Assembly: GCA_963804645.1 (NCBI GenBank)
Contig: CAWDRG010000015.1
Span: forward strand, 305,822 to 369,821
DNA: 64,000 nucleotides
Direction of reading: 5' to 3'
Source: an uncultured Bacillota bacterium
GTDB lineage: Bacteria; Sysuimicrobiota; Sysuimicrobiia; Sysuimicrobiales; Segetimicrobiaceae
Shown here: positions 2,120 through 64,000 of the stretch, piece by piece
How positions within the stretch are numbered: the first letter of the stretch is position 1
How the letters are laid out: each line of letters begins with the position of its first letter
Program-made: the position numbers and the translations under genes
Notes under the pieces: model-generated
What the model was told of the DNA's origin: nothing
Database searches by the model: none
The model's input: only the letters and a program-made list of their open reading frames with translations

Positions 2120-3013
2120 ATGGACACGATTCTTCAGCAGCTGGTTAATGGATTTACGTCGGGCGCGACGTACGCGATGCTCGGCCTCGGGCAGGCCATG
2201 GTCTACGGGGTCCTGCGCCTGATTAATTTCGCCCACGGCGACATCTTCATGGTCGGGGTGTTCGTGGGTTGGCTGATCGGCACGTATCTCGTTCAGGCGT
2301 TTGCCTGGCCGCTGCTGCCCACCATGTTTGCGGCGATGGTGACGTGCGCGTTCGCGAACTATTTGGTCGAACGACTCGGGTACCGACCATTGAGAACGGC
2401 TCCGCGCCTGTCGATGTTGTTATCGGCGCTGGCAATTTCTGAGTTTCTCGAGAACGGTACCCAGGCATTGACGGGGACGCAGCTGCATGAATTTCCGAAC
2501 CTGATTCCACCGACCGTGTATCATTGGGGATCAATTTTCGTCGCGAACGCGGATCTTCTGGTTGCGGTTACCACGTTGCTAGCCATGATCGTCGTCGATT
2601 TCATGGTCTATCGCACTCGTATGGGCAAGGCCATGCGCGCGGTGGCGTACAATATGCAGGCCGCGATCCTGATGGGGATTAATGTCAATGCAGTCGTGTC
2701 GTGGGTGTTTGTGGTCGGGGGAGCGCTCGCCGGTCTCGCAGGGATTGTCTACGGCCTCGCCTATCCTGCGATCGACCCGTACATGGGTCTCCTCCCTGGG
2801 TTGAAAGGGTTCGTGGCCGTTGCCATTGGCGGTATTGGCAGCGTCAGGGGCGCCGTGTTGGGCGGCTTTCTTCTGGGGTATGTTGAAACCTTTGCCGGAG
2901 GGTTCCTCCCCAGCGCGTTGAGGGATGCCATTGCGTTCTTCCTGCTGATCGTCATCCTGATGATTCGACCGAGTGGTCTGCTCAACGTGCCCTGGTACAC
3001 GGAGCGCGTCTAG
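2120..3013 (+). CDS. livH: Branched-chain amino acid ABC transporter permease (LivH type)
   Basis: 297-aa polytopic protein with LivH-like motifs (INFAHGDIFMVG, IGGIGSVRGAVLGGFLLG). Confidence 0.9.
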   Translation: MDTILQQLVNGFTSGATYAMLGLGQAMVYGVLRLINFAHGDIFMVGVFVGWLIGTYLVQAFAWPLLPTMFAAMVTCAFANYLVERLGYRPLRTAPRLSMLLSALAISEFLENGTQALTGTQLHEFPNLIPPTVYHWGSIFVANADLLVAVTTLLAMIVVDFMVYRTRMGKAMRAVAYNMQAAILMGINVNAVVSWVFVVGGALAGLAGIVYGLAYPAIDPYMGLLPGLKGFVAVAIGGIGSVRGAVLGGFLLGYVETFAGGFLPSALRDAIAFFLLIVILMIRPSGLLNVPWYTERV

Positions 3014-3022
3014 GCACACGCG

Positions 3023-4027
3023 ATGAACGTCCGCGTTCCGCCGGGGAGACGCGATTTTTATCGAGGCCGCTATGTCGTGGTATGGGCTGCCGTCGCTTTA
3101 GGATTGTTCGTGACCATCTACGTTGAGCAAAGTGGCATTCTTGGCGGCTATGTGGTGCTGCTGCTCCAGATCATGGGCATTTATGCCATTGAAGCGATGG
3201 GCTTGGGCTTGATCAACGGCTTCACCGGGCAGTTTTCGCTGGGTCACGCCACGTTCATGGGGATCGGTGCCTATGCCGCGGCATTGCTGACCAGCAATGT
3301 TGGCCTGCCGTTTCTGCCCACGATGCTCCTTGGAGGACTGGCGGCGGGGGGGGCGGCCCTGCTGTTGGGGATACCGATCTTTCGGTTGCTGGGAGACTAC
3401 GTCGTTGTCATTACCCTTGCGATCAATCTGATCTTTGTCAACCTGCTGAACAATTTCGGCTATGCCGGCGGACCTAGGGGATTTGAAGTCACTCAAGCCT
3501 ATGACACGCTTCCCTGGATCTACGCCTGGGTGGTGATCACCTATGTCGTCCTGCGCAACTTGGTGTTCTCCAGTCACGGGCGCGCAATCTTGGCAGTCAG
3601 AGAAGATGAAACCGCTGCCCCGCTGCTTGGGGTCAATCCGTATAAGTACAAACTGATTGCGTTCTCGCTGGCGTGCTTCTTTGCCGGCGTCGGCGGCGCC
3701 CTGTCGGCGCATACCTTGATGTTCATTGCGCCGCCCGATTTCTCGTATTTGGTCTCCATCGATATCCTTGTCATGACGCTGCTGGGAGGGAGCGGGAGCC
3801 TCTTTGGCGCCATTCTCGGCGCCGTCACATACCGCGTCGTGCTGGAGCTCCTTCGACCCCTTGGGGTCTTGCGCATGTTGGTTACGCCGGTGTTACTGCT
3901 CACCATCATCATGGTGAAGCCAACCGGTTTGTACGGGCAGAGGGAACCGCGGATTTTTCGCGATCACTGGGCGGATGAACCGATCGTGGCTCGTCGTCGC
4001 GGGTTCGGGACGACGGAAGAACAATGA
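3023..4027 (+). CDS. livM: Branched-chain amino acid ABC transporter permease (LivM type)
   Basis: 334-aa polytopic protein with the GQFSLGHATFMGIGAY motif. Its 3' end overlaps the next gene by 4 nt. Confidence 0.9.
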   Translation: MNVRVPPGRRDFYRGRYVVVWAAVALGLFVTIYVEQSGILGGYVVLLLQIMGIYAIEAMGLGLINGFTGQFSLGHATFMGIGAYAAALLTSNVGLPFLPTMLLGGLAAGGAALLLGIPIFRLLGDYVVVITLAINLIFVNLLNNFGYAGGPRGFEVTQAYDTLPWIYAWVVITYVVLRNLVFSSHGRAILAVREDETAAPLLGVNPYKYKLIAFSLACFFAGVGGALSAHTLMFIAPPDFSYLVSIDILVMTLLGGSGSLFGAILGAVTYRVVLELLRPLGVLRMLVTPVLLLTIIMVKPTGLYGQREPRIFRDHWADEPIVARRRGFGTTEEQ

Positions 4028-61258: not shown

Positions 61259-62137
61259 TCAGCCGAGCGCCTCGAGCGCGCGGGCGACGACGTACCCGAT
61301 GTCGGATGTGGCCCGAGAGAACGCCGCCGCGGCGTCCTGATAGAACCGCATGGCTGCCAAGGGGCGGGCGGGTGCGACCCCGGGATCCCGGTGATCCCGG
61401 ACTGGGAGCGCCCAGAGCTCCCGCCGTAGCACCTCACGGGTGACCTGAAACTCGTCGCACGTGTCGACCGCTTGGGCGATCAGGACCATCCCCAGGTCGA
61501 GGAGAGCGGCACGCCCGCACCCGTCGGGCTCGACAAGCGAACTGACATGTTCCCACCCATGACGCGCGCAGCACACCAGACACCAGGATTTGTCTCGAGG
61601 AAGACCCACGCACCGGGGGGACCGCGACCGGGTGGGCGGTAGCGAGAGGATCGTCCCCGTGGGGTCGACCGCGAAGGACCCGCCGATCGGCAGGGGCGGT
61701 GGATCCACGGGGAGCTGGAAGCTGGCGAGCGCGTGGAGCGCGTCCGGAAACGCGCGCGGCGTGTTGAGCGCGCGACCCACGGCCACGAGCGTCTCGAGCG
61801 GGCGGGTGAGGTTGTTGCCGAGCGTACCCGCGCGGAGATGGGTAAACGCGACCGAGAACGCATGCCACGCTCGCTTCCAGTCCGTGCACGTGGGGGAGAC
61901 AGCCGCGAGGGTAACGCGGACGAAGTCCTCGAGTGTAGCCAACCCCGCGCGAGCAACCCCCACGGAAATAGTCTCGACTGTATGATAGCGTCCGTGAAAC
62001 GCGCACTTGAGGACGACGGGGCCGGTGACGCCGGGGACGATCCCCTGCACCGCGTCCGCACCCGGCAGGGGAGCGGGACTCAGCGCACCGGTGTCGGGAT
62101 GAATATAGGCGAAGGTGTCATCGAGACGCTTCCGCAT
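61259..62137 (-). CDS. Hypothetical protein (292 aa), co-oriented downstream of the RES gene
   Basis: High-GC3 minus-strand ORF that is Cys/His-rich in places (KCAFHGRYH, WCLVCCARHGWEH). No family is recognised. Confidence 0.55.
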   Translation of the reverse strand: MRKRLDDTFAYIHPDTGALSPAPLPGADAVQGIVPGVTGPVVLKCAFHGRYHTVETISVGVARAGLATLEDFVRVTLAAVSPTCTDWKRAWHAFSVAFTHLRAGTLGNNLTRPLETLVAVGRALNTPRAFPDALHALASFQLPVDPPPLPIGGSFAVDPTGTILSLPPTRSRSPRCVGLPRDKSWCLVCCARHGWEHVSSLVEPDGCGRAALLDLGMVLIAQAVDTCDEFQVTREVLRRELWALPVRDHRDPGVAPARPLAAMRFYQDAAAAFSRATSDIGYVVARALEALG

Positions 62138-62200: not shown

Positions 62201-62742
62201 TCATGGGGACGCAGCGTCGCCAACGACGGTCTCAGTGTCGAACGTGCCGCTCACGATTGTGGCACGCGCAGCCTCAAAGACGCACACGCGGGCTGCCGAT
62301 CCTCGCAGCGATGGCGCGCGAACCGCATCGGCGCCCACGCGGAAGGCTGCCCCGCCGATTACGGCACCACGCCGAAGGGCCAGCGGCGTGTCATCCAGGC
62401 ATCGGGCAAGCCTGCCAGGCAATCGGGCCACGACCTCGAGATTCATCAGATCAAGTAGCTGGGGAATGACAACGGTAAACTCGCGGACCTCCAGCACAAA
62501 TGCCGCCCGGTCGGCAAGCGGTAGCGTACTTCCGCTACGGCCGTCGCACGGTCCTCTGCGGTATAGAGCGCCGGGGTTACGCGTGGGTCGTGCCAGCGAC
62601 CAGCGTACGACATGATGGCGCTCACGTCACGCGCATCGCGGCCGTTGAGGACGGCACGCCAAACGGTAAGATGTGCGGGCACAAGAGGCACAGTGGCCAA
62701 AGCCGTGGCGGCGTAGCCGGCCGCACGGGGGGACGAGGTCAC
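62201..62742 (-). pseudogene. RES-domain toxin (MbcT/ParT family) split by a frameshift near 62510-62520
   Basis: The N-terminal ORF contains YAGRWHDPRVTPALYTAEDRATAVAEV (the Arg and Glu of the RES triad). The C-terminal ORF contains VIPQLLDL...GADAVRAPSLRGS..RVCVFE (the Ser of the triad). The two parts join only across a frame change. Confidence 0.7.
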
Positions 62743-62748
62743 GGCAGA

Positions 62749-63108
62749 CTAGCCGACGGTTTCGAGTTGACCGACCAGTTCGCGGATGAGGTAGTTACTG
62801 CCGCCCGGGCCAGAGAGCATGATGTCACGGGGCGTCTTCCTGCGGTGAGGCAGCGGTCGGAGTGCCCAAGCGCGAGCTTCAGGGTAGGACATCCGGCCCA
62901 CGTGCTCCAGTAACGTCCGGAACACGGCGAGACGCTTCACCACGCCCGGGCGCCGGTCGGCGGAGTTCCCGGCTTCAATGCGCGCCCACGTGCTGCGGGA
63001 CAAACCGGTCGCCTCGACCTCATCGAGCGTCAGCCGGAAGAGATCGCGCACATCCCCCAGGACCGCGGCATCTGTGTAGGAGGTAACCGTCGCCATCGTC
63101 ATTGTCAT
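62749..63108 (-). CDS. Xre-type HTH antitoxin with DUF2384 (MbcA/ParS) toxin-binding domain
   Basis: The start was moved to the MTMTM cluster (63096-63108). HTH LTLDEVEATGLSRSTWARIEAG. C-terminal pattern EARAWALRPLPHRRKTPRDIMLSGPGGSNYLIRELVGQLE. Its stop lies 6 nt before the RES start. Confidence 0.75.
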   Translation of the reverse strand: MTMTMATVTSYTDAAVLGDVRDLFRLTLDEVEATGLSRSTWARIEAGNSADRRPGVVKRLAVFRTLLEHVGRMSYPEARAWALRPLPHRRKTPRDIMLSGPGGSNYLIRELVGQLETVG

Positions 63109-63421
63109 TATCCCATGCGAGACGAATCGTGTCAAAGAGGAACCGGGATAAGAGATAAGGCCCTCAAAAACTCTAACGAAAGGTCTCGAAAAGATGGCTG
63201 GACATCGGAACGCACATACATAGCTGCCTTGGGCTCTAATTGTTACTTTGAAAGATCCGGTCGGGACGAACGCTCTCTTATTCTTACAGCGAATGGGCCG
63301 AAAAAGCTCGGAGCGGTTACTATGCTCTTGCGACACTGGACGGTAGGACAGACTCTTTGTGTTGCGCTTGTGGGAGGCATTGGGTTCAGCTTGAGATTTT
63401 ACAGGATTGCGGTCGATCTAC

Positions 63422-63958
63422 TCATGTTTGATCTGGGAAGCGGGCAGAGCCGCCTTTTCCAGAAGATGCGCTAGGTCGCTTCAGGCCCTTCACCAGCTTG
63501 CGTAGCCCCGCAGGATAGCAGAGCTTCCCGAAATCGACATAATTCTTGTCCATGAGGAACGGCTTCAGATCCCTCTGCGCACGACTGACTGGGAACCTGG
63601 GCGCGGTCCACCGGTGGTCTCGCGAGATCACTAAGATCTTCTCTGGGTTTTCATCGACCTGCTTCTCTATCTCTTTGAGCACGCCGTCTCTTCGCAATGA
63701 CGCAACTGAGGCAACAAGAAGCTTCTTATCATTGGTCTGCCGCATTTGATCAATTTCAGCCCATGTCCGCTCGCCCGCTGTGGAATCCAAACCGTACATC
63801 CAACACGATACTCCCCGGGACAACAAGTCTTTCCGTAGTTGTGTCGCGAAAACTTTGTCTGGGACTCCATACGGAGTGTGTGCTAAGCTTCGTTGAGAAT
63901 TAGGGGAGCGACCGCCGGCATGGTGAATGGAGTGTTTGCGGACAAACCAACACACCAT
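63422..63958 (-). CDS. TIR-domain-like protein (178 aa)
   Basis: The pattern SLAHTPYGVPDKVFATQLRKDLLSRGVSCWMYGLD...KKLLVASVASLRRDGVLKEIEKQV follows the TIR beta-alpha layout (FxSH..D..FA..L...L...G..CW). The gene is about 53% GC and its upstream spacer is about 48% GC. The N-terminus is close to the window edge. Confidence 0.6.
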   Translation of the reverse strand: MVCWFVRKHSIHHAGGRSPNSQRSLAHTPYGVPDKVFATQLRKDLLSRGVSCWMYGLDSTAGERTWAEIDQMRQTNDKKLLVASVASLRRDGVLKEIEKQVDENPEKILVISRDHRWTAPRFPVSRAQRDLKPFLMDKNYVDFGKLCYPAGLRKLVKGLKRPSASSGKGGSARFPDQT

Positions 63959-64000
63959 GCTGAGGAGGACGCTCCGTGTCTAGGGTACATTTCCTAATTC

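Follow-up and report, generated by a model that had tools for sequence, protein, structure and literature searches.

A TIR-domain open reading frame in a low-GC locus is very probably a gene remnant joined to the left end of an IS256-family element

At the end of the 64,000-nt stretch of DNA analysed here (hereafter the window) lies a 178-aa open reading frame (ORF) with homology to TIR domains. Sequence comparisons indicate that this ORF is very probably what remains, at the 3′ end, of a larger multi-domain gene, which would have been cut within strand βA of its TIR domain by the insertion of an IS256-family element. We regard the locus as decaying, horizontally acquired DNA rather than as a working TIR system, and the 178-aa ORF as an accidental chimera; the probability that we attach to this reading is about 0.85.

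RESULTS

A TIR-like ORF composed of two parts

The ORF occupies positions 63422–63958 of the minus strand in the ORF list of the window. An earlier reading of this DNA, made from the sequence alone, had described it as a 178-aa TIR-like gene. Profile searches bear out the TIR homology: Pfam TIR_2 (PF13676) matches residues 32–145 over profile positions 7–110 with 33.4 bits, the gathering cut-off being 28 bits, and a subfamily HMM built from the relatives of the protein scores 182 bits. The ORF and its homology therefore stand. The notion of an intact stand-alone gene does not, because codons 1–28, with the ATG among them, correspond to the antisense strand of an IS256-family left end, and family homology is found only from residue 29 onwards.

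The ThsB_TIR family (PF08937) gave no match to the ORF at E ≤ 1, and no Thoeris or ThsB model matched it in a PADLOC scan, the only matches being weak ones to pAgo-associated TIR models, at model positions 14–138 of 443, which correspond to the TIR part only. The 178-aa product was not on record in an exact look-up. A word-indexed protein search with the ORF retrieved only two near-identical fragments, both called from M54, and the gene callers used on metagenome contigs predicted only products of 125 aa and 102 aa, which also start at M54. No Shine–Dalgarno sequence was found at a usable distance before the ATG, nor any promoter-like site in the 42 nt available upstream of the ORF. The sequence CCTCCTC upstream of the ATG was considered as a Shine–Dalgarno sequence and rejected, since it is the complement of the ribosome-binding site of the insertion sequence (IS).

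The left end of an IS256-family element

The segment 63874–63988, read on the plus strand, is the left end of an IS256-family IS, with an inverted repeat (GAGTGTGTGCTAAGCTTCGTTGAGAATT...), a leader, the ribosome-binding site GAGGAGG and a GTG start codon at 63976–63978. In all, 115 nt of the element are left in the window, and the remainder of the transposase there amounts to four codons, V-S-R-V, that is, the GTG start and three more.

Four metagenome contigs (L001–L004) carry DNA of the locus. Up to 63988, the three JGI contigs L001, L002 and L003 share 99.9% identity with the window; beyond this point, L001 and L002 continue into an opposite-strand IS256 transposase gene. The L002 transposase scores 196 bits with the NCBIfam model transpos_IS256, for which the equivalog cut-off is 150 bits, and 94.9 bits with Pfam Transposase_mut. 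In peat metagenome runs, depth climbs from ~3 to 14–60 over 63904–63987; the peat contigs that match 63874–63988 diverge before 63874 into unrelated high-GC DNA, and the same contigs enter an IS256-like interior after 63982 or 63988. Over its full length, the segment also aligns with left ends of IS copies in metagenome-assembled genomes of NC10, Nitrospirota and Acidobacteriota; 11 copies from genomes other than this one entered the alignment. The aligned features comprise the terminal repeat (GxGTGTGCyA..CTTAGTTGA.AATTG), the leader, an AGGAG ribosome-binding site and the start codon, and in every copy the DNA outside the terminal repeat is unrelated. The likeness to the IS256 family is thus seen both in the L002 transposase, which passes the cut-off, and in a left-end architecture and inverted repeat conserved with multi-copy elements; unlike complete IS256 elements, the window copy is cut at 63988/63989 by a different sequence. 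The identity of the IS end and its boundary at 63873/63874 are firmly established.

Relatives of the transposase were found at 184 places in GTDB genomes. Across the copies collected (L005–L084), the leader of ~100 nt that separates inverted repeat and start codon is strongly conserved over several phyla (NC10/Methylomirabilota, Nitrospirota, Acidobacteriota and Gemmatimonadota), and a single Latescibacterota chromosome holds more than 30 near-identical copies. The second end of the element occurs in none of the retrieved contigs, and no other IS256 or IS110 copies were found in the window.

TIR homology starts at the IS boundary

A phmmer/HMMER search against 1.84 billion representatives returned 510 hits, 46 of them below 1e-30, whose homology is limited to query residues ~28–162; the alignment starts at residue 28 or 29 in 72 of the 106 tabulated hits. 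In the 104 hits whose alignment takes in the TIR part completely, the median number of residues is 224 before the TIR domain and 3 after it, and only 8 of these relatives have 30 residues or fewer in front. Most relatives are 320–420 aa long, with ~220 aa preceding a C-terminal TIR domain. TIR_2 was present in all 61 relatives that were fetched, 28 of which carry N-terminal pentapeptide repeats; the other N-terminal domains include TPR, reverse transcriptase, Schlafen/AlbA_2 and histidine-kinase ATPase (HATPase) domains. The length and domain content of these N-terminal parts imply that the TIR subfamily is normally the effector end of multi-domain proteins. Relatives such as P0005, P0007 and P0009 (for example, pentapeptide-repeat–TIR proteins) are 45–55% identical to the window ORF over residues 29–162 and have in common with it the motifs YGxPD, SCWLY, LCS, GVLKEIExQIDE, RDLKPFL and NYADF. 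Whereas pentapeptide–TIR relatives reach 320–420 aa, nothing but the TIR part, lacking βA, is retained in the window.

As regards the subfamily itself, the relatives collected (P0003–P0152) belong to a widespread group of TIR_2 proteins, comprising 510 representative clusters. The TIR of this group has its nearest counterpart in SPARTA TIR-APAZ, and a conserved linker, '...AGVPxELLxxLPxIxxEVKYYSCFISYG', stands before the domain. A literature search for pentapeptide–TIR proteins found no paper on this subfamily.

The family HMM includes 46 positions upstream of the TIR domain, which cover the linker '...AGVPxELLxxLPxIxxEVKYYSCFI' and βA. Its 182-bit match to the window spans profile positions 47–181, from 'sYGepD' onward; positions 1–46, that is, the linker and βA, have no match in any frame of the window, L002 or L004, and a search of all 64 kb did not find the missing N-terminal part elsewhere. 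Where the relatives have the nearly invariant βA consensus 'CF[IV]', the aligned window sequence has an IS-coded 'AHT'. The 178-aa ORF hence does not encode a complete flavodoxin-like fold with its central βA.

The 3′ remnant of the TIR-family gene extends over 63422–63873 of the minus strand (codons 29–178 and the stop codon), from the 'YGxPD' loop after βA to the C-terminus, and keeps Glu96. The ATG and the first 28 codons of the ORF, at 63874–63958 of the same strand, are unrelated to TIR proteins, with no homology of codons 1–28 to TIR relatives in any hit, HMM or alignment. Since the IS boundary coincides with codon 29, where TIR homology starts, the ATG (63958) and the 28 codons are to be read as antisense IS leader.

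Conserved residues and predicted fold

In the alignment, the remnant keeps 15 of the 15 invariant columns of the TIR subfamily. E96, within the motif 'GVLKE', is invariant among 30 aligned sequences and aligns with position 77 of the SPARTA TIR-APAZ chains, where Glu77 is catalytic and the E77A substitution abolishes NADase activity (PMC9097488). The catalytic glutamate, whose presence the sequence-only reading had proposed to verify, is thus conserved, yet a function of the 178-aa product appears unlikely to us. The nearly invariant F27 and C83 are replaced by H and A, respectively, in the window ORF, and in L001–L003 a G>A change at the position equivalent to 63765 gives T65I at the nearly invariant Thr65. 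Taken with the ATG of the ORF, which reads ACG in L004, these substitutions are consistent with relaxed constraint.

The AlphaFold model of the ORF has a mean pLDDT of 78.6 and predicts a TIR-like fold for residues 34–165, which are confident; pLDDT ranges from 33 to 52 over residues 1–31 and stays below 50 for residues 7–31. A weak strand (pLDDT ~52) is predicted at the IS-coded residues 3–7 (VCWFV). The top Foldseek match is 8qlo_A (probability 1.00, 30% identity), followed by MyD88, MAL, BtTir and AbTir. By sequence profile, too, SPARTA TIR-APAZ is the closest solved relative (E 2.6e-07), so that the SPARTA proteins (PDB 8qlo, 8fex, 8j7s), with which the window ORF shares the 'GVLKE' motif, are closest to it in both profile and fold. 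The window ORF differs from them in lacking βA as well as APAZ, since it ends ~15 residues after the TIR domain, and the ORF list of the window shows no Argonaute ORF near it. Moreover, its relatives carry pentapeptide repeats or other domains at the N-terminus, whereas SPARTA carries APAZ at the C-terminus.

These data bear on an alternative that we consider unlikely, namely that the ORF encodes a functional, chimeric stand-alone TIR protein with NADase activity, for which the IS would provide the start codon and possibly an outward promoter, and VCWFV a substitute for βA. Such a protein would fit the 178 open codons, the retention of all 15 invariant residues including E96, the confident modelling of residues 34–165 and the presence of TIR domains at the top of the Foldseek matches, and the strand predicted at residues 3–7 could in principle replace βA. 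Stand-alone forms of the subfamily do exist, as the 8 short relatives among 104 indicate, and together with the open frame, the invariant residues and the predicted strand they count against a pseudogene. The model, however, gives little credit to residues 1–31, and the ORF has neither a Shine–Dalgarno sequence at a usable distance nor a promoter-like site in the 42 nt available upstream. The IS-derived segment varies between copies, even at the start codon in L004, the changes at F27, C83 and Thr65 affect nearly invariant positions, and the relatives use the TIR domain as the effector end of multi-domain proteins. The more specific proposal that the IS256 insertion converted the end of a multi-domain effector into a free-standing TIR NADase, with the ATG supplied by the IS and VCWFV standing in for the central strand, seems to us very unlikely; if true, a transposon would here have domesticated a TIR that lacks a sensor.

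The second junction and the sequence beyond it

The gene remnant and the IS end are followed, at 63989–64000, by the start of a different sequence, which interrupts the IS256 element after its fourth codon. All 12 bases match L004 (12/12) and differ from L001 and L002. L004, an ENA contig, is 97% identical to the window over 63239–64000 and contains an IS110-family Transposase_20 gene (63.7 bits) that ends 79 nt before the 63988/63989 junction. The break of the IS256 element at 63988/63989 is certain, and from the 12 bases and L004 we infer that the element was probably interrupted by an IS110-family element, which would lie beyond 64000. In the 290 nt of DNA upstream of the IS110 element of L004, tblastn found no match to the rest of IS256. 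Rfam searches of 62700–64000 and of L004 revealed no RNA family, and none for the IS110 element.

In three peat runs, 63988/63989 is spanned by contigs that show no difference from the window, and this junction is therefore not a misjoin peculiar to the window. The same observation weighs on the possibility that both junctions are artefacts of assembly, that is, that a contig chimera arose at repeated IS sequence and that the real genome has an intact gene. The window does come from a metagenome-like source, and 63874–63988, being multi-copy in the community, is a typical site for misjoins. The 63873/63874 junction, however, was found in four contigs that are independent of one another and stem from different samples, as well as in Logan contigs, the 63988/63989 junction recurs in L004, and no contig shows an alternative upstream continuation of 63874 that encodes the missing part of the TIR domain. 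An assembly artefact thus appears highly improbable.

The window and L004 differ at 20 positions between 63239 and 63988 (1835–2585 in L004), all of which fall within 63266–63388, 63493–63525 and 63932–63983. The 406-nt core at 63526–63931 contains none of the 20 differences, which by our own arithmetic would happen by chance with a probability of ~1e-5 to 1e-7 if they were evenly spread. The cluster at 63932–63983 is multi-copy IS sequence; for the rest of the pattern, recombination, a recent transfer of the core and assembly consensus effects are conceivable causes. In L004, the transposase genes of IS110 type and ISL3 type (290–1755, 2590–3903) are split into several frames. These broken frames and a TIR frameshift at 63493 in L004 were rejected as evidence of decay and regarded as possible long-read errors, since the contig, to judge by its name, may be a long-read assembly, and such assemblies are prone to indel errors.

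Flanking genes and the RES/Xre module

On its 3′ side, the TIR remnant is followed by a low-GC flank at 63239–63421 that travels with it. L004 has this flank too, as far as the point where an ISL3 element is inserted in that contig; the similarity ends at 63238/63239, where the ISL3 transposase ends. Neither genome and metagenome contigs searched with the TIR protein nor metagenome contigs searched with a 32-nt core pattern extended the locus. The flank genes are IS256, IS110-type and ISL3 transposases, those beyond 64000 being read from related contigs only, and no defence-type gene, be it SIR2, SLOG, Macro, Argonaute or another, was found in any flank seen.

That the TIR ORF adjoins a RES/Xre module, as the sequence-only reading had noticed, is confirmed by ORF order and profile matches. 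In the antitoxin position, upstream of RES and on the same (minus) strand, an Xre-type helix-turn-helix gene at 62749–63108 appears intact. Its 119-aa product scores 22.8 bits with HTH_31, below the cut-off of 27; no DUF2384-type or C-terminal toxin-binding domain was detected in it, nor any NCBIfam match. The RES-domain toxin gene (62201–62742, minus strand) carries a frameshift near 62500–62520 and is encoded as two ORFs, 62446–62742 and 62201–62497, which overlap each other. The former covers only positions 2–54 of the RES profile, and the remainder lies in the other frame; reading through the frameshift recovers positions 2–137 with 49.9 bits, and it is only in this way, not as an intact toxin ORF, that the domain is obtained. 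L001 and L002, which are independent assemblies, have the same frameshift and show no indel against the window over this region, which marks the frameshift as a genuine feature of the population. A programmed frameshift was also considered, and no evidence for it was found. In its gene order, with a helix-turn-helix gene preceding the RES-domain gene and both on one strand, the locus resembles RES–Xre modules of the ParST/MbcTA type, whose RES toxins target NAD+; the window differs from such modules in the frameshifted RES gene and in an antitoxin that falls below the Pfam and NCBIfam cut-offs. Directly downstream of RES, a 292-aa ORF at 61259–62137 (minus strand) has no Pfam, NCBIfam or PADLOC match.

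The low-GC patch in which the remnant lies had been recognized in the sequence-only reading as having the lowest GC content of the window, and this is indeed the case: the spacer at 63109–63421 has 49.2% GC and the ORF 53.6%, as against 67.1% for the whole window, and the lowest-GC intervals of 313, 537 and 892 nt in the 64 kb all begin at ~63030–63150. The patch is consistent with a foreign origin; the sequence-only reading had taken it as consistent with recent acquisition.

The part of the low-GC spacer upstream of the antitoxin gene, at 63109–63238, contains a promoter-like site and short repeats. A putative sigma-70-like promoter directed towards the antitoxin gene lies at 63107–63135 on the minus strand (−35 TTGACA, 17-nt spacer, TG-extended −10 GATAAT, 11/12 matches) and is bracketed by a 7-nt inverted repeat, TTATCCC (63108–63114) and GGGATAA (63145–63151). 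The end of the promoter (63107) falls at the first ATG codons of the antitoxin gene, a position which suggests that the antitoxin mRNA may be leaderless, or have a very short leader, and may be translated from a downstream ATG (MATVTSY...). A direct repeat, GATAAGaGATAAG, which had been placed one base away, was found at 63147–63159 on the plus strand, 12 nt upstream of the −35 box, and the second arm of the inverted repeat (GGGATAA) overlaps it. The exact 13-mer GATAAGaGATAAG would be expected 0.05 times in the window; by our own arithmetic, a hexamer of any sequence that recurs 7 nt further on would be expected ~16 times in the 64 kb and ~0.08 times in the spacer. The GATAAG repeat is weak evidence, not significant as an after-the-fact pattern, and it is a candidate operator element at most; a role of the repeats as operator for the Xre protein is nonetheless plausible.

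Against this background can be judged the proposal that the ORF is a short ThsB-like TIR gene in a defence or abortive-infection islet shared with RES. The resemblance to Thoeris ThsB consists in a short ORF with a TIR domain, together with the NADase or signal-generating chemistry that serves as the general model for TIR proteins; the differences are that the ORF has no PF08937 or PADLOC ThsB match and that no ThsA is seen in any flank. Instead of an adjacent ThsA (SIR2/Macro–SLOG), there are Xre and RES on one side and, in the related contigs, IS256 and IS110 transposases on the other. The stand-alone ThsB-like TIR is therefore replaced by a 3′ remnant cut in βA, and the defence partner suggested beyond 64000 by an IS256 transposase in L001 and L002 and by one of IS110 type in L004. 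The defence islet fails as well, within the limits of the flank that could be seen: that flank shows no defence-type partner, a finding that the sequence-only reading had itself named as refuting it, and RES is frameshifted. An intact ThsB-like gene with a ThsA-like (SIR2/SLOG) partner just past 64000 would be in line with the TIR_2 match above the cut-off, the neighbouring RES/Xre module and the low GC content, but it is already contradicted by the IS junction, which places the first 28 codons within the IS and leaves the domain without βA, and with a transposase as the upstream flank in near-identical contigs, a frameshifted RES and no ThsB_TIR or Thoeris match we give it next to no credence.

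DISCUSSION

The order of events at this locus and the loss of function of the remnant are matters that we infer. The ancestral gene may have encoded a multi-domain protein which ended in a SPARTA-like TIR NADase domain and had an N-terminal part, which in the relatives is ~220 aa long and most often made up of pentapeptide repeats. An IS256-family element would then have inserted exactly within the codons of βA, leaving in the window the last 150 codons of the gene (63422–63873) with the low-GC flank on their 3′ side, and the initial 115 nt of the IS (63874–63988). By chance, the antisense of the IS leader would provide an in-frame ATG and 28 codons, thereby creating a 178-aa chimera that resembles a short stand-alone TIR protein. 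The IS256 element would later have been cut after its fourth codon, probably by an IS110-family element, and the RES toxin gene would have decayed by frameshift.

A TIR pseudogene and an IS256 insertion are ordinary, both being of known kinds. The main value of the analysis lies in a correction, namely that an ORF which passes a TIR profile search is a transposon-made chimera devoid of the core strand of the domain. An annotator would probably take such an ORF for a TIR-domain protein belonging to a defence islet. Domain matches at the edges of contigs consequently need two checks, one of the point at which homology starts and the other of the presence of an IS end. As a by-product, the comparisons brought to light a widespread SPARTA-like TIR subfamily with pentapeptide repeats or other variable N-termini, which is apparently undescribed. 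The locus as a whole fits a common pattern, in which horizontally acquired, toxic NAD+-degrading genes are inactivated by IS insertion and frameshifts.
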